The notes: generated by a model not told the origin, from the sequence alone. Shown: positions 1-12,837, counted from the first letter of the stretch. The stretch: DNA of 64,000 bases from Oscillospiraceae bacterium (GCA_020025715.1 JAHHRQ010000003.1:105-64104), one strand, 5' to 3'. Translations and numbers: made by a program.

Positions 1-703
1 TGCCGAAGTGAAGTTCCTTCATACCCTCAACCTCGTCACATATATCCTTGAGTGCACATACTGAGCAGTCTGTGGGCAGACCTTCAAGAATGTGAGTAAG
101 AGTACCGGTAACATCGTTGGACTTTTTCGCAAGGTCTTTCATAGCCTTGAAATCAAAGCCGGACTTGGTGATGAAGATAACTCTGGCGTTGAGCACACTG
201 GAGTTCTTTTTATACTCTCTTATGTAGCTTGCGCCAATGGATTTAAAGCTAATACCCTTTTTCAGAGCCTTCTTGCTGACACGAACCTGCTCCCTGTAAT
301 TCTCAGGAGACATACGCACCATGTAACCTTCCGGGTACACATGATACTTAGCAAACTCAATGTCTTTAAGAGTTCTGTAAACGGCCTCGTCATCATCGCT
401 TAAAAGCCCTACACGGAGAAGTACTATGCGTGCGAAATCCACATCGCCCTTTATCTCTTTAAGGTCGGGACCGTAAAGCAGTATCTCGTCCTTATCCACC
501 AGCTCGTGGTTGGAAGTAAAGAGAACATAGTTAGCAGAGCCTTTGCCCTGGGCGCCAAGCTCGTAAGCGGCGTCCTTCTGCAAGACCAGTTCGCTGGAAC
601 CGATGTCAGTCCAGCAGTCCTTTTCGGAATAATCCCACCTTTTTGCGCTGCCATTTTCCAGCAGAGCCTCGGTATCCTTGATCAGGGAATTGTACAGTTC
701 CAT
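1..703 (-). CDS. Acetyl-CoA synthase (AcsB/CdhC) domain-like protein, partial; 3' end lies beyond the window edge
   Basis: Absent from the supplied track because it runs off the window. ATG at 703-701, open to base 1 (234 codons, checked by hand). Translation: MELYNSLIKD...AYELGAQGKGSANYVLFTSNHELVDKDEILLYGPDLKEIKGDVDFARIVLL...DIEFAKYHVYPEGYMVRMS...VRVSKKALKKGISFKSIG...ARVIFITKS...DCSVCALKDICDEV. By eye this lines up with the Moorella AcsB stretch ..VEMGG..FELV..IEVIGPDI..LGILV..DFE..INYGEG..LRVSKDAVAKGFRFKNYG..VQVTIFT..SCVLCQSF that leads into the A-cluster Cys motif. Recognised from memory, no search done. Confidence 0.55.
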   Translation of the reverse strand, partial: MELYNSLIKDTEALLENGSAKRWDYSEKDCWTDIGSSELVLQKDAAYELGAQGKGSANYVLFTSNHELVDKDEILLYGPDLKEIKGDVDFARIVLLRVGLLSDDDEAVYRTLKDIEFAKYHVYPEGYMVRMSPENYREQVRVSKKALKKGISFKSIGASYIREYKKNSSVLNARVIFITKSGFDFKAMKDLAKKSNDVTGTLTHILEGLPTDCSVCALKDICDEVEGMKELHFG

Positions 704-706
704 AAA

Positions 707-865
707 TCAGAATACCAGGTCGACTTTCTTACGGTCGAATATTTCGTTCATTCTCATGTATACCCATGACAGAAGTTTCTGATCCAAGTTCCAGAAATAA
801 ACTACGAACAGAAGTCCTGTGACCGCAAGGAGGACTTTTAAAAGTTTCTTAAAGAATTTGCACAT
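707..865 (-). CDS. Hypothetical small membrane protein (52 aa)
   Basis: ATG 865-863, TGA 709-707. MCKFFKKLLKVLLAVTGLLFVVYFWNLDQKLLSWVYMRMNEIFDRKKVDLVF has one hydrophobic helix after a KK cluster. AAGGAG lies 13 nt upstream and an in-frame TAA two codons upstream fixes the start. Below the size cut-off of the supplied track. Same reading frame as the downstream ACS-like ORF. Confidence 0.4.
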   Translation of the reverse strand: MCKFFKKLLKVLLAVTGLLFVVYFWNLDQKLLSWVYMRMNEIFDRKKVDLVF

Positions 866-916
866 ATTTCTTTATATGCTCCTTTCCTGAAGATGGAGTT
901 AATTATAAGCTAAAAA

Positions 917-1711
917 TTATTTCTTAGCAAGACCCTTCTGGCGTGCATACTCAGCAGCGCCCAGAGCACCCATAAGCTGAGGGTCGGTCTTAAGGTCGAC
1001 AACTTTCAGCTTCAGGACATGCTCGATAGCTTCCTTCAGACCGTCATTCTTTGCGCAGCCGCCGGTCAGGGTGATGGAGTCGGTAGCACCGGCCTTCTTA
1101 GCCATAACGAAGCAGCGCTTTGCAACTGCCATTTCGATACCGGCTGCGATCTCGTCGATGGGCTTGCCTTCGCCGACGAGGGTGATAACCTCAGACTCTG
1201 CGAAAACAGTGCACTGAGCGGTTATAGGAATAACGTTCTTTGCCTTCAGAGAGAGCTTGGAGAACTCAGGAAGAGTAACTTCAAATGCACGGGCCATAGC
1301 CTCGAAGAAACGGCCGGTACCGGCAGCGCACTTATCGTTCATAGCGAAGTTCTTAACAGTACCGTCGGTATCAATGCTGATACCCTTAACGTCCTGTCCG
1401 CCGATATCGATAATAGCCTTAACGTCGGGGTTGGTAACATGAACGCCCATTGCGTGGCAGGAGATTTCGGAGATATTTTCATCAGCGAAAGGAACCTTGT
1501 TACGTCCGTAACCGGTACCGATGAGGTATTCCAGGTCCTTGGAGGTCTTGAGGCCCACCTTGTCCAGAACTTCCTGCATTGCAGCCTCTGCGGACTGCTG
1601 AGCATTCATCTTGCTTCTGATGGTGGTATCAGCCATAATTTTGCCGTTTTCATCAATAATTATTGCCTTGGTGTAGGTAGAACCAACGTCACATCCGCCG
1701 AAGTATTTCAT
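917..1711 (-). CDS. HgdC/BcrAD_BadFG-type ATP-dependent activase (archerase) of radical dehydratase/reductase systems
   Basis: 264 aa. ASKHA phosphate-1 motif GCDVGSTYTKAIII, then DIGGQD. Both cluster-bridging Cys contexts are present (NDKCAAGTGRF and ITAQCTVFAESE), plus LTGGCAKN. GGGAGG SD sits 9 nt upstream. Confidence 0.9.
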   Translation of the reverse strand: MKYFGGCDVGSTYTKAIIIDENGKIMADTTIRSKMNAQQSAEAAMQEVLDKVGLKTSKDLEYLIGTGYGRNKVPFADENISEISCHAMGVHVTNPDVKAIIDIGGQDVKGISIDTDGTVKNFAMNDKCAAGTGRFFEAMARAFEVTLPEFSKLSLKAKNVIPITAQCTVFAESEVITLVGEGKPIDEIAAGIEMAVAKRCFVMAKKAGATDSITLTGGCAKNDGLKEAIEHVLKLKVVDLKTDPQLMGALGAAEYARQKGLAKK

Positions 1712-1842
1712 ATATATATCCTCCCAAATATGTATTTTTTAATCAGGGCGGAGACAGCCGCCCCTTAACTTCATTTTACCGTGGTCTGAGGGGTCTTTCA
1801 TTGGCCCCGGAGGCCATCAAACTTTCAGCTCAGGCTGAAAAT

Positions 1843-3630
1843 TTACATGCAGATATCGTCCTCGAAGTCGACCAGAGAAGCGTCGATAGGCTCAGCCTGC
1901 TTGACAGTACGCATATACTGGCTGACCTTGTCGCGCATGGAGCGGCGGGAGACGGTACGGGGGTCCATAAGGTCGTGCTCAACCCAGATCATGTCTATGC
2001 CGCGCTCACGGCCCTGTTCGTCCAGAATACCCTGAACGGTAGCCATGTTCTTACATGCGACGTTCTGATACATGATGACGAGAGGAGCATTCCAAGCTTC
2101 GCACTGAGCCCACAGCTCATCGACAACGTTCTGGTAACCGCCGTTGGTATGACGACGCATAACCATACGCTCATACAGTCTTGCAAGGTCTCTGAGAGCC
2201 TCTTCCTTATCCTCAGTCTCAAGCATCTTGGTGAAGTTGAGGGACTCCATTTCGACCAGGACATCAATGCCCCAGCAGTTAGCAGCCCAGTTGGAGAAGT
2301 TAGCATAGTAGTGAGCAGGGCAGGACCAAACGATGGCTCTGTACTTCATCTTGCCGGGATAGGGTTCTTCCTTCTTGTCGTAGGCCTTGAGCAGAACCTT
2401 GTTCATCTTGCGCATGGCCTTGAGAGTACGGGGATCGGCGCCGCCGTCCATCTCATAGTTCCACTTACGGAAGAGTTCATATACAGGTCCTATAAACTGA
2501 GGATGAGCGGTCTTGTTGATTTCCCACTTCTGCAGCTCATAGGTGGTTTCTTCGTTGAAGCGCTTAATCTGATTGAAGTATGCATCCCAGTTCCACTTTG
2601 CACCGGTCTGATCCTCAATGAACTTTATGCAGGCTCTGATATCCTCTGCGCCCATCTGAACGGTCTCCTCGTCGTAGTAACGCACGGGGAAACAGAGGTG
2701 GAACACAGGCATATCGGGGAATCTGCGCTTGAAGTAAGAGGAAGCCATGGTGGAACCGTCACAGGGCATGGAGCTTGAAAGGAAGCAGCTTCCCATGTGA
2801 GGCAGTGCGTCGATAACAAGAGCGCCGCACTCGGAAGAAGGAACAGGGCAGGTATCGGAGGGGAGGCCGTAGCTTTCAACAGCGTCGATGTAAGGAACGC
2901 AGGTGAGCTGGTCGATTTCAGATACCAGGAACACAGGCAGAAGCTGGTGAGGAATACCCAGCAGATCGGGGAAACCACCCATAATCTGACCCATGGTCAT
3001 TTCATCGAAGAGAACAGTCTTGCGGCTCAGCTCGCGGCAGTTACCGTTCTTTTCATCGCACTTGGAGAGGAACACAAGGTTCTCTGCAACGTAGCGGAAT
3101 ATTTCGTATGTAGCCATGTGGGACAGGCGGAGGTTTGAGCCTCTCAGACCCATCATGCACTTATCTGCAAAACCGTGGCAGCAGAAGTAGGAAACATACC
3201 AGCGGTAGTAGAACAGGCCGTTAAGGGCGGGGATAAGGTCTTTAGAGAAGGTAAGAAGAAGCATGCCCCAGATATGAGCCCATTCCTTGAAATCGTAAAG
3301 GGTATCCTTTACGCCGCGCCATTCACGACGGACGGTAGCCATATCGCCTTTTCTGTAAAGGCGGCCGAGGTGCTTTTCACCGTTTACGATAACGTCAGCC
3401 TTTTCAGCGGCGGACATATCCTTAAACTCAATGAACTCTTCCTTGACGCGGTTGAGGTCATCCTTCATCTTGAATTTCTGGACACCCCAGAAGTGTTTCA
3501 TATCCACTTCCTTGATCATGTCCTTGGCTATGCCGAAAATTTCCTTCATATTTTCGGCCTGAGCCTTCCAGTTTATTTCATCCTTATACTTGAAGAAAGA
3601 AGGATTAGGGTACTTGGGAGTTCTAGCCAT
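1843..3630 (-). CDS. 2-hydroxyacyl-CoA dehydratase / BcrBC / double-cubane-protein family subunit (large, 595 aa)
   Basis: The Cys-rich C-terminal ~420 aa has the general layout of HgdA/HgdB/BcrC proteins (..SDTCPVPSSECG.., ..SSSMPCDGST.., ..IVWSCPAHYY..). About 170 extra N-terminal residues have no recognisable motif. The ATG overlaps the upstream stop (TAATG at 3628-3632), indicating translational coupling. Confidence 0.75.
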   Translation of the reverse strand: MARTPKYPNPSFFKYKDEINWKAQAENMKEIFGIAKDMIKEVDMKHFWGVQKFKMKDDLNRVKEEFIEFKDMSAAEKADVIVNGEKHLGRLYRKGDMATVRREWRGVKDTLYDFKEWAHIWGMLLLTFSKDLIPALNGLFYYRWYVSYFCCHGFADKCMMGLRGSNLRLSHMATYEIFRYVAENLVFLSKCDEKNGNCRELSRKTVLFDEMTMGQIMGGFPDLLGIPHQLLPVFLVSEIDQLTCVPYIDAVESYGLPSDTCPVPSSECGALVIDALPHMGSCFLSSSMPCDGSTMASSYFKRRFPDMPVFHLCFPVRYYDEETVQMGAEDIRACIKFIEDQTGAKWNWDAYFNQIKRFNEETTYELQKWEINKTAHPQFIGPVYELFRKWNYEMDGGADPRTLKAMRKMNKVLLKAYDKKEEPYPGKMKYRAIVWSCPAHYYANFSNWAANCWGIDVLVEMESLNFTKMLETEDKEEALRDLARLYERMVMRRHTNGGYQNVVDELWAQCEAWNAPLVIMYQNVACKNMATVQGILDEQGRERGIDMIWVEHDLMDPRTVSRRSMRDKVSQYMRTVKQAEPIDASLVDFEDDICM

Positions 3631-4826
3631 TATTTATTTCCCTCCTCTTTGTGAATGCGTTTGATTTCAAGAGACTCAACAAATGCCTGAACACGTGTAC
3701 GGAGCTGACCGGAGTTACCGTTGTTGTAAAGTCTGTCTATGGACAGGACGGGCCAGCCATAGTCATCGGCTACAACGTGGCTTGCCAGAGCTCTCTCGAA
3801 GCCCCAGTAGTCACAGTATTTCATCTGCTCGTAGATTATACCGTCGGCCTTGTATTCCTTTGCGAGTCTGTCGGAGGTCTCACGGCGCTGGAGAACCTTC
3901 TCGTCGGATATGTATCTGGGGCACTCGGAAACTTCCATATAGTGCAGGCAAATCTGACGCAGGGCATCCTCATCGTCACGGAGTTCTATGATCTCACGAC
4001 CGGGAGTGGAGCCGTAGCAGTATCTGTCGGATACAACCAGAGCGCCGCAGCTTTCAATAAGCTCAGTCAGCTGAGGATCGTCGATTTCGGAACCGATAAC
4101 TGCAACACGTGCGCGGAAAGCAGGCTTCTTATCGGGCTTTCTCTGTTTGAGCTCTTCCAGAGTCTCACGCAGATAAGGAAGAATGAGAGCCTTGGGGCAT
4201 ACGTAAGTGCAAAGGTCGATTACGTGGAACTCATAGCCGGTAATTACAGGGTTATCAGCCTTACGCATTTCCATCATTTCGTTGATGATGCGGCAGACCT
4301 CATTGTGCTCCTCAACAGCCTTGCGGATAGCTGCATCGGAGGTGTCCACACCGTAAGCCTCTGTCATTCTGTCAAGCACGCGCAGGCGCATCTGCTTAAC
4401 ATAGGAGTCGAGAGTATAATCGGTGATTTTGTAGGGCATGTCGGTGTGAGTGACAAAGAAGTTGGGTTTGTCATTCACCTTAAGGATTTCGAAATGCTCC
4501 ATGGAACGGTTCATCATGGAACATGCGTCAACACCTATAAGGGCATCCAAGAACTTGTAGCCGCCTTCAATGGCACGCTCCAGAAGGGATCTGGAGAACT
4601 CACAGGAGTAGTTGGACATGTAGTAGGTGGCTATGTCTATGGAACCTGTTTTCGGTGCGCGCAGACGTACTGAGAAGCAATTATCGACGTTGAGCAGTAC
4701 CTCAGGAATGTGGAAACAGGTATATCCCATTGCCAGTTGTCCATCAGCCTGTGCCTGTTTAACCAGCTCATTGTCAGCGTTCTCAAGCAGTTTTTCGAAG
4801 TAGATCAGATGCTTAAGATCTTTCAA
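3630..4826 (-). CDS. 2-hydroxyacyl-CoA dehydratase / BcrBC family subunit (small, 398 aa)
   Basis: Typical family layout: GYTCFHIPEV near the N-terminus, VDACSMMN, RVAVIGSEIDD, DRYCYGS, MKYCDYWG. The start is TTG (4826-4824) with AGAGGTG 6 nt upstream. Confidence 0.75.
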   Translation of the reverse strand: MKDLKHLIYFEKLLENADNELVKQAQADGQLAMGYTCFHIPEVLLNVDNCFSVRLRAPKTGSIDIATYYMSNYSCEFSRSLLERAIEGGYKFLDALIGVDACSMMNRSMEHFEILKVNDKPNFFVTHTDMPYKITDYTLDSYVKQMRLRVLDRMTEAYGVDTSDAAIRKAVEEHNEVCRIINEMMEMRKADNPVITGYEFHVIDLCTYVCPKALILPYLRETLEELKQRKPDKKPAFRARVAVIGSEIDDPQLTELIESCGALVVSDRYCYGSTPGREIIELRDDEDALRQICLHYMEVSECPRYISDEKVLQRRETSDRLAKEYKADGIIYEQMKYCDYWGFERALASHVVADDYGWPVLSIDRLYNNGNSGQLRTRVQAFVESLEIKRIHKEEGNK

Positions 4827-4843
4827 ATGTTACACCTCTTCTT

Positions 4844-5608
4844 TTAAAGTATTTCTATTCTCTGGAGTGCTTCCGTCACTCCCTTGAGCATTGCAGAATC
4901 TGCGGGCAGCTCCATAACGCTCTTGCCTTTAATTTCATTAGCGGCAAAAGTATTGTCCGCAGGGATAAAAGAGAGTATGTCCACACCGGGTATAGACATA
5001 AGGTCTTTCAGTTCCGGATTGGTCATCCGGTTTACAATCGCGCCGATCTTATCGTAAGAGATAAGCTCATCGGCCACATTTTTAATGGTTGATACAACCT
5101 GACAGCCCTTCTTGCTCTGGTCCGTAATGAGCAGAAGGTGAGTAACCTTTTCCATAACGCGGCGCTGAATCTGTTCAATGCCGGCCTCGCCGTCAATAAC
5201 GACGTAATCAAAGCTGTTAGCCAGAAGACTTATAACTTCCTTAAGATAGGAATTAACCTTGCAGTAGCAGCCGGAGCTTTCAGGACGGCCGATTGCCAGA
5301 AATGCAAAACCGGGCATTTCCACAAGGGCGTCAAAAATTCTGAACCGTGCCTCACTGAGAAGTTCAAGTGCTTCCTTGGTCTCGCCGTTTTCAACGCTGT
5401 CCACAATACTCATTCGAATATCGTCCAGCGTCAGATTAACATCTACGCCAAGAGCAACCGAAAGGCCAACCGCCGGGTCTGCGTCTATTGCAAGAATTTT
5501 TTTATCCGGATATTTCTCCACAAGCAGTCTCACGATAGTAGCGGAAATTGAAGTTTTACCGACTCCGCCTTTACCTGCAACCGTGATTATTTTGGCCATG
5601 TTCTCCAT
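4844..5608 (-). CDS. CooC/AcsF-type P-loop ATPase (nickel-insertion accessory protein family)
   Basis: 254 aa. Deviant Walker A GKGGVGKTS and DADP. The C-x-C metal-binding motif GCYCKV sits at the position characteristic of CooC rather than MinD/ParA. Walker B-like VVIDGEAG. G-rich SD lies 6 nt before ATG 5608. Confidence 0.75.
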   Translation of the reverse strand: MENMAKIITVAGKGGVGKTSISATIVRLLVEKYPDKKILAIDADPAVGLSVALGVDVNLTLDDIRMSIVDSVENGETKEALELLSEARFRIFDALVEMPGFAFLAIGRPESSGCYCKVNSYLKEVISLLANSFDYVVIDGEAGIEQIQRRVMEKVTHLLLITDQSKKGCQVVSTIKNVADELISYDKIGAIVNRMTNPELKDLMSIPGVDILSFIPADNTFAANEIKGKSVMELPADSAMLKGVTEALQRIEIL

Positions 5609-5666
5609 GTGCGTCCCCCCTAAAGTTTATTTCGCGTACACATATTGTCTATGCTTTGTCGAAGTT

Positions 5667-5695
5667 ATTTTATCACGAAGCTATAAAATATGCAA
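5667..5695 (-). promoter_or_regulatory. Candidate sigma-A promoter of the cooC-like operon
   Basis: Minus strand TTGCAT (5695-5690), 17 nt, TAAAAT (5672-5667), about 55 nt upstream of ATG 5608. The -35 is weak. Confidence 0.35.
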
Positions 5696-5923
5696 GATAA
5701 ACACTTTGAAAATGTAACCAAACCTGTTTTTAGTACAAATTGTGCAAAAATGTTCATCTTTCGCGCCGTTCCTGTTTAGACAGCTTCCTGTTTTTGTAAA
5801 AAAGTTGTAAAGAAAACGGCTTTTTTCGAGCCTAAATCAGTCAAAATCGTAATTCGGGCTAATCGTGTATATGCAATTTTCTTCTTTCTGTATTGCCGAT
5901 TTTAGGCAAAAATGCAAAATTGA

Positions 5924-5960
5924 ACAAAAAATAACAATCCCGTCTTTTTGGGATTGTTAT
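5924..5960 (-). terminator. Rho-independent terminator after the M20 peptidase gene
   Basis: 11-bp stem ATAACAATCCC / GGGATTGTTAT (5931-5960), followed on the minus strand by TTTTTGTT. Confidence 0.8.
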
Positions 5961-6000
5961 TTAAAGTGTGTTAAATTTTAATCAGTGTTTTCTGCCTTTA

Positions 6001-7443
6001 TCAGCACTGTTTCATCAGTCTTATAAAGAATTCGACACTGCGGTGGAGAACGTCAAGGCGTATTCTCTCGTTGTTTCCGTGAATGGTTGCACGCTCCTCA
6101 GCGGTAAGATCCATAGCGGAGAAACGGTAAACCTTATCGGAAAGATCTCTGTAATGGCGGCTGTCGGAGCACTGAATCATAAGGTAAGGTGCAACAAGGC
6201 AGTTTCCCCATGTTGCGGAAACGGCGTTCTTAACCCGCTTCCAGCCCTCGCAGTCGGTGCGGGAAATGGGGCTGGGCTCCATGTGAGCGCCTACGGTAAT
6301 CTTTATGTCGCTGTCGTTGATTGTATTCTTAATGTATTCCTGAGCAGAGGCAACGGAGTCAGAGGGGTTGAGGCGTATGTTGGAAACCATAGAGGCAGAG
6401 GGAGGAATGACGTTGGGAGCCTTGCTTCCCTGCATCTGGGTGAAGGCAACGGTGGTTCTCATAAGAGCGTTCAGCTCGCCGCCGCTCTTTTTGCACATAG
6501 AGTCCAGAATACCGCCGAAGCACCAGAGGTTTGCAAAAATCATACGGTACATGAAGCTGGAATGTCTGCCCAGAGTGTCAAACATCTCTGCAACAGGCTT
6601 TGTGATATGAGCCTTGAAGGGGTGGTTTTCAACCTTTACGCAGGCTGCGGACATTCTGCCCACGGGAGTGTGGGGTTTGGGAGCGGAAGCATGACCGCCG
6701 CTGGAGGAAATACTGTATTCCAGATTCATCATGCCCTTTTCGGCAATGCCTATAAGAGCACAGGGCTCGTGAACGCCGGGGAACACGTTTTCAACAACTG
6801 CTCCGCCTTCGTCAACAACCATGGAGGGAACGATGCCCTGCTCCTTAAAGTAATTTACTATATTTACAGCACCCATGCCGTTAACTTCTTCTCCGCCGGA
6901 GAAGGCGAAATAAATGTCGTTTTCAGGAGTGAAGCCCTGTTTAATCAGGTTTTCGGCTGCGGAAAGTATACCGTTAAAGGTGGCCTTTGTATCCAGAGCA
7001 CCTCTGCCCCAGAGTACGCCGTTTTCGATTATGCCCTCAAAGGGAGGCTTCTCCCAGTTTTCTTCTTCAACGGGCACAACATCGTAGTGAGCCATTAAAA
7101 CAGCGGGATCGCCGTCATTTTTGCCTTTCCAGTGGAAGAGCAGTGCTCTGTTATCCATTCTCTGAAGAGGGCAGGTTTCGATTACATGGGGATAAAGAAC
7201 AGGCAGCTTGCCTATGAGCTTTTCAAACTCTGCGTCATCCTCAAGTGCGGGGTCCTCATTGGAAACAGTTTTGCAGCGGATAAGCTCTCTCAGGGCATTT
7301 TCCGCAGCGTCACGGTCAAAATCCACATCTCCAAAGCTCTGCTTTTCCTCTTCCAGAGGCTTGAAGTTCAAGGTTCTGACTATTATTACCGCAAGCAGAA
7401 TTGCGATAACGGCCAGAATCACGTATAACACGACCATTTTCAT
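6001..7443 (-). CDS. M20-family metallopeptidase (carboxypeptidase-S/PM20D1-like) with N-terminal membrane anchor
   Basis: 480 aa. TM helix VVLYVILAVIAILLAVIIV. M20 signatures LMAHYDVVP, WGRGALDTK, FSGGEEVNG, MVVDEGG. Confidence 0.85.
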   Translation of the reverse strand: MKMVVLYVILAVIAILLAVIIVRTLNFKPLEEEKQSFGDVDFDRDAAENALRELIRCKTVSNEDPALEDDAEFEKLIGKLPVLYPHVIETCPLQRMDNRALLFHWKGKNDGDPAVLMAHYDVVPVEEENWEKPPFEGIIENGVLWGRGALDTKATFNGILSAAENLIKQGFTPENDIYFAFSGGEEVNGMGAVNIVNYFKEQGIVPSMVVDEGGAVVENVFPGVHEPCALIGIAEKGMMNLEYSISSSGGHASAPKPHTPVGRMSAACVKVENHPFKAHITKPVAEMFDTLGRHSSFMYRMIFANLWCFGGILDSMCKKSGGELNALMRTTVAFTQMQGSKAPNVIPPSASMVSNIRLNPSDSVASAQEYIKNTINDSDIKITVGAHMEPSPISRTDCEGWKRVKNAVSATWGNCLVAPYLMIQCSDSRHYRDLSDKVYRFSAMDLTAEERATIHGNNERIRLDVLHRSVEFFIRLMKQC

Positions 7444-8911: not shown

Positions 8912-9859
8912 TTACTTTTTAAGGCTTACTGCCTTCTCTGCCATTTCGGCAATCTTTTCGCAGGTGAGGCCGTAGTGCTGCAAAACTTCCTCAGCCTTGC
9001 CGCTTCTGCCGAACTCATCCATAACGCCGTGGCGCAGAACGGGAACGGGGCACTTTTCACTGCACAGTCCGCAGACAGCTTCACCCAGGCCGCCGATAAC
9101 GGAGTGCTCCTCAGAGGTAACAATGCAGCCGGTTTCTCTTGCTGCTTTGAGGACTATCTCCTCATCCAGAGGCTTAATGGTGTGCATGTCGATTACTCTG
9201 GCGGAAATGCCCTTTCCTTCCAGAATTTCTGCTGCCTTTACAGCTCTTCCGACCATAAGGCCGGTGGCTATAATAGTAACATCCTTACCGTCTTTAAGGC
9301 ATACGCCCTTGCCTATCTCAAAATCGTAATCCTTAACCTCGTCAGTGAAAATCTCACTGTCGGAGCGCTGAAGGCGCATATATGCAGGGCCGTCGTAGTT
9401 TAACAGAGCCTCAACAGCCTTCTTCATTTCGTAACCGTCGCAGGGGCAGAGAACAGTCATGCCGGGAATGGCGCGCATAAGAGCGAAGTCCTCAACGCAC
9501 TGGTGGGTTGCGCCGTCCTCACCGACGGAAACACCGCCGTGAGAGCCGATGACTTTAACATTAAGGCCGGGGTATGCAACGGAGTTTCTCACCTGCTCAT
9601 ATGCTCTGCCGGCGGTAAACATTGCAAAGCTGTTGCAGAAGGGCTTTAAGCCGGTGGTAGCCATACCGGCGGCAATGCCGGTCATGTTGCACTCGGCAAT
9701 ACCGCAGTCGAAAAATCTCTCAGGGAAAGCCTTTGCAAAGGAATTGGTCTTGGTGGCACCGGACAGGTCTGCATCCAGTACAACAAGCTCGGGATATTTG
9801 GGAGCAAGCTCCACTAAAGCTTCACCGTAAGCGGTGCGGGTTGCAATTTTTCCTGCCAT
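8912..9859 (-). CDS. Transketolase, C-terminal (pyrimidine-binding) subunit of a split enzyme
   Basis: 315 aa. FFDCGIAECNMTGIAAG and GSHGGVSVGEDGATHQ. Lies directly downstream of the N-terminal subunit gene with a 1-nt gap. Confidence 0.9.
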   Translation of the reverse strand: MAGKIATRTAYGEALVELAPKYPELVVLDADLSGATKTNSFAKAFPERFFDCGIAECNMTGIAAGMATTGLKPFCNSFAMFTAGRAYEQVRNSVAYPGLNVKVIGSHGGVSVGEDGATHQCVEDFALMRAIPGMTVLCPCDGYEMKKAVEALLNYDGPAYMRLQRSDSEIFTDEVKDYDFEIGKGVCLKDGKDVTIIATGLMVGRAVKAAEILEGKGISARVIDMHTIKPLDEEIVLKAARETGCIVTSEEHSVIGGLGEAVCGLCSEKCPVPVLRHGVMDEFGRSGKAEEVLQHYGLTCEKIAEMAEKAVSLKK

Positions 9860-9860
9860 A

Positions 9861-10706
9861 TTACTCTGCCTCCAGTTCTTTTATCTGAGCGTTAAGCTCA
9901 TTCACGGCAATCTCATACTGCTCGTCATTGGGAGCCTTGCCGTGCCAGCCGGCCTGATCTTCCATGTAGGAAACACCCTTGCCCTTGGTAGTGGCAGCAA
10001 TAATAACAGTGGGCTGTCCCTTTACCTCGCGGGCCTCTCTGAGTGCCTCGCGGATTGCGGAATAATCGTGGCCGTCTATCTTTATAACGTGCCAGTTGAA
10101 TGCTCTGAACTTGTCATCCAGAGGCTCGGAAGGCATAACGTCACTGGTTTTACCGTCTATCTGAAGACCGTTAACATCGACGAAAGCACAGAGGTTATCA
10201 AGCTGCCACTTAGCAGCAGCCATTGCAGCCTCCCAGATCTGGCCCTCGTCTATCTCACCGTCACCGCAGAGAGCGTAGGTGCGGTAGCTTTTGCCTCTGA
10301 GCTTTGCGGAAACTGCCATTCCAACAGCAGCGCTCAGACCCTGACCCAGAGAACCGGTGGACATGTCAACGCCCTTTACATTCACCATATCGGGGTGGCC
10401 TGACAGGTGGGACTTAATGGAGCGAAGAAGTTTCAGGTCTTCCTGAGGGAAAAAGCCTCTCAGGGCAAGCATAGCATAAAGTGCAGGAGCGCAGTGGCCC
10501 TTTGAGAGCACAAATCTGTCTCTGTCCTCCCAGCGGGGGTCCTCAGGTTTTATATTCATCTCATCAAAATATAAAACGCTCATAATGTCCATGCAGCTCA
10601 GGGAGCCGCCCGGATGTCCGGATTTTGCCTCATGTATGGCATCTACCGCCAGAAGCCGCCCCTTGGCAGCCATGAGCCGAAGCTCTCTCTCGGATAATTT
10701 TTCCAT
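9861..10706 (-). CDS. Transketolase, N-terminal (TPP-binding) subunit of a split enzyme
   Basis: SGHPGGSLS, GSLGQGLSAAVGMA, CGDGEIDEGQIWEA. Start moved to ATG 10706 (AAGGA 8 nt upstream); the ATG at 10733 has no SD. Confidence 0.88.
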   Translation of the reverse strand: MEKLSERELRLMAAKGRLLAVDAIHEAKSGHPGGSLSCMDIMSVLYFDEMNIKPEDPRWEDRDRFVLSKGHCAPALYAMLALRGFFPQEDLKLLRSIKSHLSGHPDMVNVKGVDMSTGSLGQGLSAAVGMAVSAKLRGKSYRTYALCGDGEIDEGQIWEAAMAAAKWQLDNLCAFVDVNGLQIDGKTSDVMPSEPLDDKFRAFNWHVIKIDGHDYSAIREALREAREVKGQPTVIIAATTKGKGVSYMEDQAGWHGKAPNDEQYEIAVNELNAQIKELEAE

Positions 10707-10854
10707 CTCGTCATTCCTTTCATTTATGCTCATAGGGCGAAAGCCTATTTATCAGCATGGTTTATTTTCCCACGCAAGGCCGCCCTTTGTCAAGTCAAAC
10801 TCTGTATAAATAGTATATTTACCGGAGTTTGGCTAAAAAAATCATTGATTTAGA

Positions 10855-10881
10855 TAAAAAAGCAGAGGTTTTCGCCTCTGC
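10855..10881 (-). terminator. Rho-independent terminator after moaB
   Basis: GCAGAGG (10862-10868) / CCTCTGC (10875-10881), followed on the minus strand by TTTTTTATC. Confidence 0.75.
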
Positions 10882-10891
10882 CTGCTTATTT

Positions 10892-11395
10892 TTAGGTTGC
10901 AGCGCAGTTTGCCGAGCCTTCGGAAGAGAGCATATCCATGCCGTGTTTTAAAGGTTCAATAACTGCCGCCAGATTTTCTGTTGCTGCTTTTCTGCTGCCG
11001 GGAAGATTTATTATAAGGCTGCCGCCCCGAATACCCGCCGCGCTTCTTGAAAGGCAGCCTCTGGGAGTAATCTTCATGCTCTCCGCTCTCATAGCTTCCG
11101 GTATGCCTCTGGTTTCCCGCTCAATTACCGCAAGGGTTGCCTCGGGGGTAATGTCTCTGCGGGCAAAGCCGGTTCCCCCGGTAGTCAGCACCATGGAGAT
11201 TTTAAGCTCATCGCAGCACTTTATAAGCTCTGCCTTTATAAGCTCCATTTCGTCGGGCACGGTGGCTCTGTAAACTACATCCCAGCCCTCGTTCTCTGCC
11301 ATTTCCGCTATGGCGGGGCCGCTGGTGTCCTCCCGCTCACCGCTTGAGCACTTGTCGCTTACAGTTATTACCGCCGCTGTATATTTTTCGCTCAC
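10892..11395 (-). CDS. moaB: Molybdenum cofactor biosynthesis protein B / MogA family
   Basis: AAVITVSDK...SGP..., LTTGGTGFARRD, PGS. Start set to GTG 11395, which has GGAGG 7 nt upstream and follows the moaC stop directly. The longer ORF to 11494 would overlap moaC by about 100 nt. Confidence 0.85.
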   Translation of the reverse strand: MSEKYTAAVITVSDKCSSGEREDTSGPAIAEMAENEGWDVVYRATVPDEMELIKAELIKCCDELKISMVLTTGGTGFARRDITPEATLAVIERETRGIPEAMRAESMKITPRGCLSRSAAGIRGGSLIINLPGSRKAATENLAAVIEPLKHGMDMLSSEGSANCAAT

Positions 11396-11397
11396 TC

Positions 11398-11883
11398 TTA
11401 TTCCTCCTTCCTTAAGTAGTCTCCGTGAACACCGCCTGTCTTGCTCACAAGGCGTATATCCGTTATAACCATATCCTTCTGCACAGCCTTGCACATGTCG
11501 TATACCGTCAGCGCCGCCGTTGAAACCGCGGTGAGAGCCTCCATTTCAACGCCTGTTCTGCCGTCGCAGCTGACTTCTGCATAAATTTCAACTGACTGTC
11601 TTTCCTCACACAGGGAAAGTTCCAGATTAACTCCGTCTATAATTACCGGGTGGCACATGGGGATTAAATCCGGCACCCGCTTTGCACCCATAACTCCCGC
11701 AATCTGGGCAACAGTCAGTACATCCCCTTTTTTCATGCCGCCGCTTTTTATAAGATTAAAGGTATTTTCATTAACCAGCACTCTTGCCCCTGCTCTTGCA
11801 GTGCGGACGCTTACAGGCTTTTCCCCTACGTCCACCATTTTGGCTCTGCCCTGATTATTGAAATGAGTAAAATCTGCCATCAT
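11398..11883 (-). CDS. moaC: Cyclic pyranopterin monophosphate synthase MoaC
   Basis: 161 aa. MVDVGEKP..., PMCHP, EALTAVSTAALTVYDMCKA. Confidence 0.92.
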   Translation of the reverse strand: MMADFTHFNNQGRAKMVDVGEKPVSVRTARAGARVLVNENTFNLIKSGGMKKGDVLTVAQIAGVMGAKRVPDLIPMCHPVIIDGVNLELSLCEERQSVEIYAEVSCDGRTGVEMEALTAVSTAALTVYDMCKAVQKDMVITDIRLVSKTGGVHGDYLRKEE

Positions 11884-12837
11884 TCAGCCTCCAATCTGGT
11901 TCATGTTCCGGCCTGCCTTGCTGCGGTTATTGCAGTCCAGTGCGCCGTGCCATTCGGGTTTAGCATGTATAGCTCTTATCATCTGCCCTCTCATGCCTTC
12001 CTCATCAAGCCCCTTTATGGAAATCTCATCCGAGGAGTGGAGGCAGGGCTTCAGCTTTCCGTCGGCTGTAAGCCTTATACGGTTGCACTCCGCGCAGAAA
12101 TGAGCGCTTACAGGGCTTATAAGGCCTATATTGCCCATGGCTCCGGGGAGTCTGTAAAGCCGCGCCACGCTGCCGTCACAGGGAACCTTCTCAGCCTCAG
12201 GCAGTTCCTCCAGAACCCGCTCGTTTGAAATAAAGGCCTCAGGGCCGAAATCTCCGCTGTCGTACATAGGCATAAGCTCTATAAAGCGTATATCCACAGG
12301 ATAGCGCATGGTAAGCTCAGCCAAGGAGCGGATTTCATCATCATTAAATCCGCCGATTAAAACCGTGTTTATTTTAATTTTCTTAAATCCGGCAAGAAGA
12401 GCCGCTCTCAGCCCCTCTTCCGCCTGAGAAAGTGTTCCCCGCCGGGTCATGTAGGCGTATTTTTCGGCATTTAAAGTATCAAGGCTTATATTAACCCTCT
12501 TTACTCCCGCCTCTTTAAGAGGCTGTGCAAGCTTCGGGAGCTTAATGCCGTTTGTAGTAATACACACCTCTTCAATTCCGGGCACCGAGGCTGCATTACG
12601 GCATATTTCCACTATATTTTTGTTAACCAGCGGCTCCCCGCCGGTTATTCTGATTTTTCTTATTCCCAAAGAGGCCGCCGCACGCACAGCGCAGGCCATT
12701 TCCTCCACAGTAAGCATAAGCTCAGGGGCTTTTTTGCATATTCCGTTTTCAGGCATGCAATATCGGCAGCGCAGATCACAGAGCTCCGTCACCGACATTC
12801 GCATGTATGTGATTTCTCGTCCGTAATTGTCAGTCAT
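11884..12837 (-). CDS. moaA: GTP 3',8-cyclase MoaA (radical SAM)
   Basis: 317 aa. CDLRCRYCMP (CX3CX2C). The second cluster region is CAECNRIRLTADGKLKPCL. Ends in GG. Confidence 0.92.
   Translation of the reverse strand: MTDNYGREITYMRMSVTELCDLRCRYCMPENGICKKAPELMLTVEEMACAVRAAASLGIRKIRITGGEPLVNKNIVEICRNAASVPGIEEVCITTNGIKLPKLAQPLKEAGVKRVNISLDTLNAEKYAYMTRRGTLSQAEEGLRAALLAGFKKIKINTVLIGGFNDDEIRSLAELTMRYPVDIRFIELMPMYDSGDFGPEAFISNERVLEELPEAEKVPCDGSVARLYRLPGAMGNIGLISPVSAHFCAECNRIRLTADGKLKPCLHSSDEISIKGLDEEGMRGQMIRAIHAKPEWHGALDCNNRSKAGRNMNQIGG

Follow-up and report, generated by a model that had tools for sequence, protein, structure and literature searches.

A six-gene operon from an Oscillospiraceae bacterium probably specifies an uncharacterised enzyme from the superfamily of benzoyl-CoA reductases (BCR), 2-hydroxyacyl-CoA dehydratases (HAD) and double-cubane cluster proteins (DCCP), along with a set of conserved support proteins. 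Our preferred reading is a BCR-like reductase that works at low potential, is driven by ATP and has metal-handling accessories dedicated to it. The operon lies at the left edge of the window, the 64-kb stretch of DNA that was analysed, and comprises the following features in 5' to 3' order.

5929..5962, minus strand: terminator-like hairpin, a 13-bp stem with a T run after it, which ends the upstream M20 peptidase gene
5624..5651, minus strand: weak sigma-70-like promoter match, TAGACA-16-TAAACT, 5' of a GGGGGG ribosome-binding site and the ATG at 5608
4844..5608, minus strand: CooC-type MinD-family ATPase, 254 aa, with deviant Walker A GKGGVGKT and C114-x-C116
3630..4826, minus strand: HgdS, BzdN/DCCP-like subunit, 398 aa (Pfam HGD-D, 1.6e-88)
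1843..3630, minus strand: HgdL, divergent alpha/BzdO/HadB-like subunit, 595 aa (Pfam HGD-D, 1e-34, residues 247-565)
917..1711, minus strand: HgdC-type ATP-dependent activase, 264 aa (BcrAD_BadFG, 4.5e-57), with cluster-bridging C128 and C167
707..865, minus strand: single-pass membrane protein, 52 aa, with the motif VYF(F/W)NLD(M/Q)KL
1..703, minus strand: acetyl-CoA synthase (ACS)-like protein, 242 aa, 234 codons of which are in the window; ACS middle (A2) domain, linker helix and D-C-x2-C-x5-C-DEVEG

The six minus-strand ORFs run from 5608 to 1 as one unit. Going from 5' to 3', the genes are separated by 17 nt, a 1-nt overlap at 3630, 131 nt, 51 nt and 3 nt, in agreement with the six co-directional ORFs, their coordinates and the spacing range (1-nt overlap to 131 nt) reported in an earlier sequence-only reading of this DNA. 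The 5' boundary is the strong terminator-like hairpin at 5962-5929, and an AT-rich leader of 320 nt (35% GC) lies between the hairpin and the first gene. The promoter match is a candidate only because sigma-70-like sites were no more common here than in shuffled sequence. Of the one candidate promoter proposed earlier a weak consensus match is left, but the unit does start behind a strong hairpin and an AT-rich leader, and the operon is a transcription unit of its own. Sequence past the left window edge was judged from a 99% identical contig, in which the flank consists of yabP-yabQ-divIC-S1 and not of an ordinary acs/cdh operon. An acetyl-CoA hydrolase/transferase-family gene is located four genes past the edge of the window in the same contig. 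No CODH or ACS gene was found in the 64-kb window or its flanks, confirming the absence of an adjoining CODH noted before, and the lack of corrinoid protein and methyltransferase genes extends to all loci, none of which has such a gene linked to it.

Both HgdS and HgdL proved to be members of the HGD-D family as had been proposed, at 298 and 121 bits, respectively, where 28.4 is the gathering score. Among solved structures HgdS matches BzdN best (8S02_B, E 6.9e-23), and in the alignment C37, C75, C102, C270, C302 and C338 of HgdS lie opposite the BzdN [8Fe-9S] ligands C36, C73, C100, C263, C293 and C327. All six cysteines at ligand positions are invariant in 56 orthologues, and on the strength of this alignment HgdS is predicted to bind an [8Fe-9S] double-cubane cluster. 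HgdS nevertheless missed the NCBIfam equivalog cut-offs for BzdN (87 versus 454 bits) and DCCP (NF040772; 136 versus 350 bits, with HgdL at 36 bits), and the HadC equivalog reached 83 bits versus a cut-off of 700.

A single-sequence search of the PDB with HgdL gave no match. The HgdL family profile matched DCCP, which was the best PDB match, as well as BzdO, MbdO and HadB. In the profile alignment, C261 corresponds to BzdO C95, C290 to Cys4 of DCCP and C526 to BzdO C380. The alignment places these three residues on catalytic or proximal ligand positions, and the triad that binds the open-site catalytic [4Fe-4S] cluster in BzdO, HadB and DCCP is kept; C282, C452 and C510 are three further conserved cysteines. 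An AF2 model of moderate confidence (pLDDT 76.6) had HadB (3O3M_A, TMt 0.81) as its best match and also matched BzdO. At its N-terminus HgdL carries some 200 additional residues that form a helical region. The extra N-terminal residues that had been noticed in the larger subunit are present, but only about 80 of them are specific to Oscillospiraceae, and orthologues of 512-521 aa have the remainder too. Identity between paralogous HgdL types is 29-46%, compared with 75-92% for the activase across families. Since HgdL diverges fast and has several paralogous types, it is probably this subunit that sets the substrate specificity.

The activase scored 221 bits with NCBIfam CoA_E_activ (TIGR00241, cut-off 125), which together with the Pfam match bears out the earlier HgdC/BcrAD-type call. 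Its best solved relative is MbdQ (1.8e-64), followed by HadI (1.3e-59) and HgdC (8.9e-56), and it missed the BzdQ equivalog (184 versus 380 bits). By manual count along the 1HUX alignment, C128 and C167 lie opposite HgdC residues 127 and 166, which we take to be the [4Fe-4S] ligands that bridge the cluster across the HgdC dimer. Both are invariant in 67 orthologues, and the two cluster-bridging cysteine contexts described before can be retained. The 52-aa membrane protein had no family match in Pfam or NCBIfam; a small homologous ORF occupies the gap between the activase and ACS-like genes in Oscillospiraceae and most Lachnospiraceae loci.

The P-loop protein encoded by the first gene has CooC1 (3KJE) as its best solved relative, with a full-length match (E 1.5e-16) in which the C-x-C motif is aligned. 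MinD came next (6e-9) and matched the N-terminus only. C114 and C116 are invariant in 59 orthologues. By its deviant Walker A, its C-x-C motif and its closest relative, the protein belongs with CooC/AcsF and not with MinD/ParA, as initially suggested. No CODH or ACS client for it is encoded in the window or its flanks, its sole linkage being to the truncated ACS-like protein.

The ACS-like ORF, which the sequence-only reading had taken to be cut off at the window edge, loses little there: judged from the 99% identical contig it ends 8 codons further on, as a complete, stand-alone gene. The resemblance to the ACS middle domain was substantiated. The ORF scored 33.6 bits with Pfam CdhC (gathering score 24), the family profile retrieved nothing but ACS chains from the PDB (E 7e-10), and all 23 Foldseek matches of an AlphaFold model were ACS structures (best 1.9e-10). 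The protein missed the NCBIfam ACS equivalogs, with 18-23 bits versus cut-offs of 356-809. The C-x2-C-x5-C spacing was found as described, and the whole D-C-x2-C-x5-C-DEVEG motif is invariant in the family, which is a large one of its own with 614 clusters at 50% identity. C213, C216 and C222 are the only cysteines, and the C-terminus follows 20 residues after the third. The completed protein lacks the Cys-Gly-Cys nickel site that the sequence-only reading had proposed to look for beyond the edge, as well as the fourth cluster cysteine and the third domain. With three cysteines, no Cys-Gly-Cys and no third domain, it cannot hold an A-cluster. A conserved arginine, R130, lies opposite ACS W418, which stacks on the adenine of CoA. 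ACS R429 lies opposite the conserved R141, which is part of a conserved RVSK motif.

A survey of gene neighbourhoods, as envisaged in the sequence-only reading, found the five larger genes together in 84 of the 97 informative loci (those with enough flank), in two phyla and even where gene order was rearranged. The source lineages are Oscillospiraceae, Lachnospiraceae (Butyrivibrio, Pseudobutyrivibrio, Lachnospira eligens and others) and Treponema. Far from being rare, the cassette occurs widely in Clostridia of the gut and rumen. Its host bacteria are best known as carbohydrate fermenters. Some Oscillospiraceae variants have no CooC gene nearby, and some Pseudobutyrivibrio strains keep the CooC, activase, small ORF and ACS-like genes and lack the HGD pair (HgdS and HgdL), so the accessory module may have a role of its own. 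No functional assignment for the cassette and no homologue with a defined substrate emerged from NCBIfam equivalog models, source names or the full-text literature searched, just as the sequence-only reading knew of none. The cassette has no CoA-transferase or acyl-CoA dehydrogenase gene, which upholds the absences claimed before, and no ferredoxin gene; it therefore does not indicate substrate class or electron donor. In none of the lineages was a CoA-transferase or 2-hydroxyacid dehydrogenase gene found inside it.

Homology backs the earlier idea of an ATP-activated low-potential redox enzyme, and of the four results on which that idea had been made to hinge (the ACS match, the affiliation with CooC, the left flank and close homologues with a defined substrate), none came out against it. 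In the mechanism that we propose, a dimer of the activase would be reduced by reduced ferredoxin or flavodoxin, and ATP hydrolysis would push the electron into the double-cubane cluster of HgdS, acting as an electron store. HgdS would then hand electrons to the HgdL cluster, where the bound substrate may be reduced via radical intermediates. Net reduction with stoichiometric ATP consumption is favoured over redox-neutral dehydration because the double-cubane is kept, as in BCR and DCCP and unlike in the dehydratases. The CooC-like ATPase, the small membrane protein and the ACS-like protein could form an accessory set that inserts or holds a metal, possibly nickel, or that matures or docks the enzyme; these roles are speculative and were assigned from gene linkage.

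It is also conceivable, though doubtful, that the cassette is not a catabolic enzyme but a machine for cofactor assembly or activation. By analogy, HgdS and HgdL would serve as a scaffold like NifEN and the activase would act like NifH, and the CooC-like and ACS-like proteins would provide another enzyme with nickel or a cluster fragment, or carry these to it. A candidate for this other enzyme is an IsrA-like FAD/NAD/4Fe-4S oxidoreductase of ~940 aa, whose gene is the next one after the ACS-like gene in 43 of the 73 loci of a Lachnospiraceae-dominated set. HypA is encoded downstream in 27 of these loci and HypB upstream of CooC in 9. A Ni-binding Cys6 cluster site has been proposed for IsrA homologues, and these are associated with HypA and HypB (PMC10134865). 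In addition, one operon carries two metallochaperone-like components, and in the Pseudobutyrivibrio strains without the HGD pair the IsrA-like gene, too, is missing from the syntenic position. This co-loss was, however, seen in a few closely related strains, and none of the IsrA-like, HypA and HypB genes is present in the window or in any Oscillospiraceae, Treponema or Lachnospira eligens locus examined. Elsewhere IsrA homologues occur with HypA and HypB only. HgdL, moreover, keeps a cysteine triad of the catalytic type and has branched into paralogous types in the manner of substrate-specific enzymes.

We regard it as decidedly unlikely that the operon encodes a classical 2-hydroxyacyl-CoA dehydratase of the lactyl-, phenyllactyl-, hydroxyisocaproyl- or hydroxyglutaryl-CoA type with its activator, next to unrelated CooC-like and ACS-like genes. 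The strong HGD-D and activase matches, HadC, HadB and HadI among the solved relatives and the acetyl-CoA hydrolase/transferase-family gene beyond the window edge would fit such an enzyme, as would the single activase gene, which suggests a homodimer like that of dehydratase systems. Yet HgdS keeps all six double-cubane ligands and is BzdN-like, whereas dehydratase beta subunits carry a reduced [4Fe-5S] remnant according to the BzdNO structure paper. The low HadC score and the absence of CoA-transferase and 2-hydroxyacid dehydrogenase genes also speak against it, and linkage of the CooC-like and ACS-like genes in 84/97 loci, rearranged orders included, argues against chance neighbours. Least credible, and very improbable, is a non-canonical carbonyl/CO system. 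Here the ACS-like and CooC-like proteins would assemble a simple Ni-Fe-S site that draws its power from the ATP-driven module and stands in for part of CODH/ACS in those Lachnospiraceae whose Wood-Ljungdahl pathway is incomplete. An ACS middle domain and a CooC homologue do co-occur outside any acs operon. Acetogenic labelling and CO-dehydrogenase activity without canonical CODH/ACS are described for 'Ca. Galacturonibacter soehngenii' in a paper that also lists Pseudobutyrivibrio xylanivorans, Butyrivibrio fibrisolvens and Roseburia as having a partial pathway and no ACS (PMC7000372), and these latter taxa carry the cassette. But the link is purely circumstantial, and the missing third domain, fourth cluster cysteine and Cys-Gly-Cys of the ACS-like protein, its arginine in place of the CoA-stacking tryptophan and the lack of linked corrinoid protein or methyltransferase genes all weigh against it.

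The operon shares features with several known systems. Compared with AcsB/CdhC, the ACS-like protein covers residues 313-496 of Moorella thermoacetica ACS, and its C-x2-C falls at the start of the A-cluster motif; it differs in standing alone at 242 aa without the first or third domain and in its cysteine complement. The CooC-like ATPase shares with CooC1/AcsF (3KJE) the deviant Walker A and the metal-binding C-x-C over a full-length match, but has no CODH or ACS target encoded in its vicinity. The isr operon of Acetobacterium wieringae (putative isoprene reductase IsrA, HypA/HypB) recalls the flanks of many Lachnospiraceae cassettes; as published, it has no HGD, activase, CooC or ACS-like genes, and its characteristic genes are missing from the window and the Oscillospiraceae loci examined. 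With HadBC/HadI (3O3M, 4EHT) and HgdAB/HgdC the operon has in common a single activase gene, an activase with both bridging cysteines and, for the HgdL model, HadB as nearest structure. It differs in the full double-cubane ligand set of HgdS, as opposed to a [4Fe-5S]-type beta cluster, and in having no CoA-transferase or dehydrogenase partners. DCCP and DCCP-R from Carboxydothermus hydrogenoformans (6ENO, 7YYL) have the same fold, the double-cubane ligand pattern and a homodimeric activase-type reductase, and a C-x28/29-C 'TTCDG' motif is common to HgdL and DCCP; neither system has an assigned physiological substrate. DCCP is, however, a homodimer, whereas the operon encodes two very different subunits, and HgdL has no conserved cysteine at the Cys1/Cys2 motif positions, some 20 and 40 residues ahead of C261. 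BzdNOPQ/MbdONPQ (8S02, 9GAI) likewise pair a double-cubane subunit, whose six ligands are conserved in HgdS, with a three-Cys [4Fe-4S] catalytic subunit as a heterodimer, and use an HgdC-family ATPase module, the operon's activase being closest to MbdQ among solved relatives. The operon falls below the BzdN and BzdQ equivalog cut-offs and has no aromatic-degradation context, its HgdL is very divergent with the long N-terminal extension, it has one activase gene where the Bzd type has two distinct ATPase subunits, and it adds the CooC-like, ACS-like and small membrane proteins.

Six co-directional minus-strand ORFs, which the sequence-only reading had taken as one operon, were confirmed between positions 5608 and 1 of the window. 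Their separations range from a 1-nt overlap to 131 nt (in order 17 nt, the 1-nt overlap, 131 nt, 51 nt and 3 nt).

Features of the cassette and its upstream boundary
5962-5929, minus strand: strong terminator-like hairpin with T run at the end of the upstream M20 peptidase gene
5608-4844, minus strand: CooC-like P-loop ATPase, 254 aa
4826-3630, minus strand: HgdS, the smaller HGD-D family subunit, 398 aa
3630-1843, minus strand: HgdL, the larger HGD-D family subunit, 595 aa
1711-917, minus strand: HgdC-type activase, 264 aa
865-707, minus strand: small ORF, 52 aa
703 to past position 1, minus strand: ACS-like ORF, complete at 242 aa

The leader of the cassette comprises 320 nt with 35% GC and is followed by a G-rich ribosome-binding site and the ATG at 5608; a search of Rfam with this leader gave no match. 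A single candidate promoter had been proposed ahead of the operon. Promoter-like hexamers are indeed present there, but they are no more frequent than in shuffled sequence. The best promoter-like match of the region (TTGCTA-17-TATAAT, 10/12) is located at 902-930 on the minus strand, at the end of the activase gene and ahead of the small ORF; as an internal promoter it could drive the small ORF together with the ACS-like gene.

The left flank of the window was read from locus L001, a contig of GCA_003704445.1 with 99% identity in nucleotide sequence. In L001, the ACS-like ORF is complete at 242 aa and ends 8 codons beyond the window edge (...HFGIGDKGAKK*). The idea that it is the start of a full ACS cut by the window edge, continuing leftward with a possible Cys-Gly-Cys motif, was therefore rejected, and formation of an A-cluster is ruled out. 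The gene is followed by a hairpin and then by yabP, yabQ, divIC, an S1-domain gene and an acetyl-CoA hydrolase/transferase-family gene. Neither a Cys-Gly-Cys motif nor an acs/cdh operon was found left of the ACS-like gene in this flank, in keeping with the initial view of the neighborhood. The hydrolase/transferase-family gene (L001 13515-14822, 435 aa), four genes past the ACS-like gene and about 3 kb outside the window on its left side, is the sole CoA-transferase-type gene near the cassette.

The remainder of the 64-kb window consists of housekeeping genes, as called from ORF sizes and N-terminal sequences and not from profile searches, and no paralogues of the cassette genes were found within it. 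The M20 peptidase gene (6001-7443, minus strand) is an intact ORF of 480 aa with a hydrophobic segment at the N-terminus; in the 99% identical contigs L001 and L002 only a 244-aa product is called (4975-5709), and the gene may be disrupted there. Farther upstream, the region 8912-12837 holds split transketolase genes (8912-10733, minus strand) and two minus-strand ORFs (10892-11494 and 11884-12837) identified without a profile check. Beyond the transketolase genes, L001 carries the molybdenum-cofactor genes MoaC and MoaA. None of these upstream genes has an evident link to the cassette.

The resemblance of the last ORF to the middle domain of acetyl-CoA synthase, originally seen by eye, was borne out by profile and structure model alike. 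The protein scores 33.6 bits against Pfam CdhC (gathering score 24), its family profile retrieved ACS chains only from the PDB (E 7e-10), and its AlphaFold model (pLDDT 91.4, falling to 52-78 across the Cys region) matched ACS structures only (23 matches, best 1.9e-10, about 170-180 aligned columns). Profile positions 20-206 align to Moorella ACS residues 313-496, and the alignment stops about 10 residues short of Cys506, which we take to be the first A-cluster cysteine. Within the family, C213, C216 and C222 are invariant and D212 is nearly so, C29 is not conserved, and the C-terminal motif CDEVEG(M/L)(K/R)ELH is conserved. Judged from alignment and model, the protein is an ACS middle domain with a linker helix and three cysteines and nothing further. 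It belongs to a large family of stand-alone proteins, nearly all of 230-250 aa (2834 clusters at 90% identity, 614 at 50%). In ACS, the middle domain provides most acetyl-CoA contacts, including an adenine-stacking Trp (bioRxiv 10.1101/2024.08.05.606187). The equivalent of this residue in the Moorella enzyme, W418, stands opposite a conserved arginine, R130, in the profile alignment, and R429 stands opposite the conserved R141.

The small ORF encodes a membrane protein with no family match in Pfam or NCBIfam. In most Lachnospiraceae loci, the gap that separates the activase gene from the ACS-like gene is filled by a homologue of about 51-56 aa, or more if an upstream start was chosen. It has a single transmembrane helix and carries the motif VYFFNLDMKL...KHYDK; the window version reads VVYFWNLDQKLL. 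As this homologue occupies the same gap, we regard the small ORF as a real sixth gene.

Pfam and NCBIfam assign the CooC-like ATPase only to the broad CbiA/MinD group. Its best solved relative is CooC1 from Carboxydothermus hydrogenoformans (3KJE, E 1.5e-16, full length), with whose C-x-C motif the sequence GCYCKV is aligned, whereas MinD, the next relative, was matched at 6e-9 and at the N-terminus only. A MinD/ParA positioning ATPase was rejected on this basis, and the assignment to the CooC type stands. C114 and C116 are invariant in 59 orthologues. The activase scored 221 bits with TIGR00241 (cut-off 125), and its solved relatives are MbdQ (1.8e-64), HadI (1.3e-59) and HgdC (8.9e-56). By our own count along the HgdC alignment, C128 and C167 lie opposite HgdC residues 127 and 166, which we take to be the cluster-bridging ligands; both bridging-cysteine contexts of an HgdC-type activase had already been recognized in the sequence-only reading.

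The membership of the two remaining proteins in the HGD family was likewise upheld (Pfam HGD-D, 1.6e-88 for HgdS and 1e-34 for HgdL, in the latter for residues 247-565 only). The best solved relatives of HgdS are BzdN (8S02_B, 6.9e-23), HadC and DCCP, the double-cubane cluster protein. In the BzdNO structure, the [8Fe-9S] cluster is ligated by Cys36/73/100/263/293/327 (PMC11971306). HgdS C37/75/102/270/302/338 pair with these residues and all six are invariant in 56 orthologues. HgdS is hence predicted to be a double-cubane subunit.

As a single sequence, HgdL gave no match in the PDB; its family profile does match (DCCP 7.8e-8, BzdO 1e-5, MbdO 3e-5, HadB 1.4e-3). An AlphaFold model built with a 35-sequence alignment (pLDDT 76.6, pTM 0.81) has its nearest structural matches in the catalytic subunits HadB (TMt 0.81), BzdO, DCCP and MbdO, with beta/N-type subunits lower. 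In the profile alignments, the counterparts of C261 are BzdO C95 and the third DCCP-motif cysteine. C290 falls on cysteine four of DCCP (HgdL and DCCP share a TTCDG motif and the spacing C-x28/29-C), and C526 falls on BzdO C380. Because C261, C290 and C526 align on BzdO/DCCP cysteines, HgdL carries the three-cysteine set of the open-site catalytic cluster. Three extra cysteines, C282, C452 and C510, are 93-100% conserved in 61 sequences. Profile-profile comparison of HgdL with HgdS was weak (probability 2%) and serves as a rough guide only. The additional N-terminal residues noticed in the larger subunit do form a region predicted to be helical (residues 1 to about 200), but Oscillospiraceae-specific sequence is limited to roughly the first 80 residues; from about position 89 on, conservation extends to the orthologues of 512-521 aa in other families.

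Conservation of the gene set was surveyed in locus scans of ACS-like relatives with one genome per species. The scans found 466 close relatives, for the most part in Oscillospiraceae of the rumen and gut ('Ca. Limivicinus'), 144 relatives with an EVEGLRELH motif, mostly from Lachnospiraceae, and 18 members of a third subfamily, including Treponema MAGs and the cultured Lachnospira eligens; the divergent member P0241, used as query in a further scan, gave none. Among loci with at least 5.3 kb upstream of the ACS-like gene, the CooC-like, HgdS, HgdL and activase genes were all found beside it in 18/22, 54/62 and 12/13 cases, 84/97 in total. The neighborhood survey suggested in the sequence-only reading thus reveals a widespread and not a rare cassette. 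Cultured carriers include Butyrivibrio fibrisolvens 16/4, Pseudobutyrivibrio ruminis, P. xylanivorans, Laedolimicola intestinihominis and Lachnospira eligens, and besides Oscillospiraceae and Treponema the cassette occurs in MAGs labelled Agathobacter and Roseburia. In two loci, L179 and L180, the order is changed to CooC, ACS-like, activase; HgdS comes next in L180, and L179 stops inside the activase gene. Linkage therefore survives rearrangement.

Median identities to the window proteins in the Lachnospiraceae-dominated set were 78% for the activase, 61% for the CooC-like ATPase, 56% for HgdS, 39% for HgdL and 37% for the ACS-like protein. HGD pairs, that is HgdS with HgdL, fall into several paralogous types, between which HgdL is 29-46% identical, and two types stand in tandem in two Oscillospiraceae MAGs (L062, L066). 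This rapid divergence suggests that HgdL is the specificity subunit. Oscillospiraceae hold at least two further types beyond that of the window, one of them near the Lachnospiraceae type (64-68% identity). An Oscillospiraceae variant (L022, L025, L027, L051) has a divergent HGD pair and no CooC gene nearby; its upstream genes are unrelated housekeeping genes. Four Pseudobutyrivibrio strains (L123, L129, L130, L131) and a Hespellia MAG (L136) kept the CooC, activase, small ORF and ACS-like genes and have neither an HGD pair nor an IsrA-like gene at the syntenic site; HypA remains in L123 and L130. The accessory trio of these strains may work with partners encoded elsewhere.

Less than 5.3 kb of upstream sequence was present at 60/82 Oscillospiraceae loci, and most of these short contigs (within L005-L082) start close to where the activase gene ends, with only 0.1-0.6 kb ahead of the ACS-like gene. 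Between species, activase identity is about 90%. We suspect that this segment, strongly conserved and possibly present in several copies, causes metagenome assemblies to break.

Directly 3' of the ACS-like gene, 43/73 Lachnospiraceae-dominated loci encode an oxidoreductase of about 940 aa (Pyr_redox_2, Fer4_20, Fer4), with HypA downstream in 27 of the 43 and HypB upstream of CooC in 9. It is of the FAD/NAD/4Fe-4S type (examples within L083-L162 are L116 10773-13655 and L083 6272-9484) and resembles, by architecture and neighbors and not by direct sequence comparison, the 'clade 9' family of IsrA, the putative isoprene reductase of Acetobacterium wieringae. HypA is found near 73% of IsrA homologues, and a Ni-binding Cys6 cluster has been proposed (PMC10134865). 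That the cassette is a cofactor-assembly machine serving IsrA-like enzymes appears rather unlikely to us; IsrA-like, HypA and HypB genes are absent from the window, from all Oscillospiraceae loci and from the Treponema and L. eligens loci. At Acetatifactor-type loci (L144 1-2530, L147 1-1607), N-terminal sequences point to putative genes for a four-subunit 2-oxoacid:ferredoxin oxidoreductase divergently upstream.

A full-text literature search for the gene combination, including candidate papers, yielded no description of it, and the papers on CODH gene context that were examined do not mention HGD or activase genes. Two preprints, on SAO/double-cubane proteins and on M. maripaludis CooC2, concern other systems and were set aside. 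Save for the generic activase domain, the cassette proteins reached no NCBIfam equivalog cut-off; as had been presumed, no close homologue with an assigned function emerged from the searched literature or these models. The catalytic core is of an already known kind; what is new is that it comes obligately with a CooC homologue, with the ACS middle domain in isolation and with a tiny membrane protein. Enzymes of the benzoyl-CoA reductase/2-hydroxyacyl-CoA dehydratase/double-cubane superfamily catalyze some of biology's hardest reductions, and we know of no natural substrate for most double-cubane members. Prominent taxa of gut and rumen, such as Lachnospira eligens, Butyrivibrio, Pseudobutyrivibrio, Oscillospiraceae and Treponema, share the cassette in conserved and syntenic form. 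Knowledge of its substrate would extend the metabolism of gut anaerobes by one reaction and reveal the role of a CooC homologue and an isolated ACS middle domain outside CODH/ACS. With cultured carriers at hand, the cassette is directly testable.

The original reading as an ATP-activated low-potential redox enzyme is supported and is refined by the predicted double-cubane nature of HgdS. ATP-coupled low-potential electrons would pass to the HgdS cluster and from there to a substrate bound by the open iron of the cluster in HgdL. Those two branches of the family that carry out net reductions keep the double-cubane cluster, of which dehydratases have a remnant (PMC11971306), and this favors a net reduction. 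An ordinary dehydratase with unrelated neighbors, as set against the linkage in 84/97 loci, strikes us as improbable. A non-canonical carbonyl-handling system is scarcely to be expected. In its favor, 'Ca. Galacturonibacter soehngenii' is reported to combine acetogenic labelling with CO-dehydrogenase activity in spite of lacking CODH/ACS, and Pseudobutyrivibrio, Butyrivibrio and Roseburia are named as partial-pathway organisms (PMC7000372), but their overlap with the cassette carriers is circumstantial.

Roles for the CooC-like ATPase, the small membrane protein and the ACS-like protein were drawn solely from tight linkage. The simplest guess, a speculative one, would be insertion or holding of a metal, possibly Ni, at the three-cysteine site of the ACS-like protein or at the extra HgdL cysteines. 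It is a long shot that the CooC-like and truncated ACS-like proteins build or service a new Ni-Fe-S site working with the ATP-driven double-cubane enzyme. If they did, this would be a new nickel-enzyme class among fermenters that abound in gut and rumen; it could supply the carbonyl-branch activity that is missing in Lachnospiraceae with acetogenic labelling and no CODH/ACS or, alternatively, be a maturation/activation system for IsrA-type reductases of unactivated alkenes.

In its core, the ATP-driven redox enzyme predicted here resembles Bzd-type benzoyl-CoA reductase in combining an ATP-driven activase with two subunits, one for the double-cubane and one for the catalytic [4Fe-4S] cluster. 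Unlike that system, it has a single activase gene, a trait that it shares with the dehydratases and DCCP-R.
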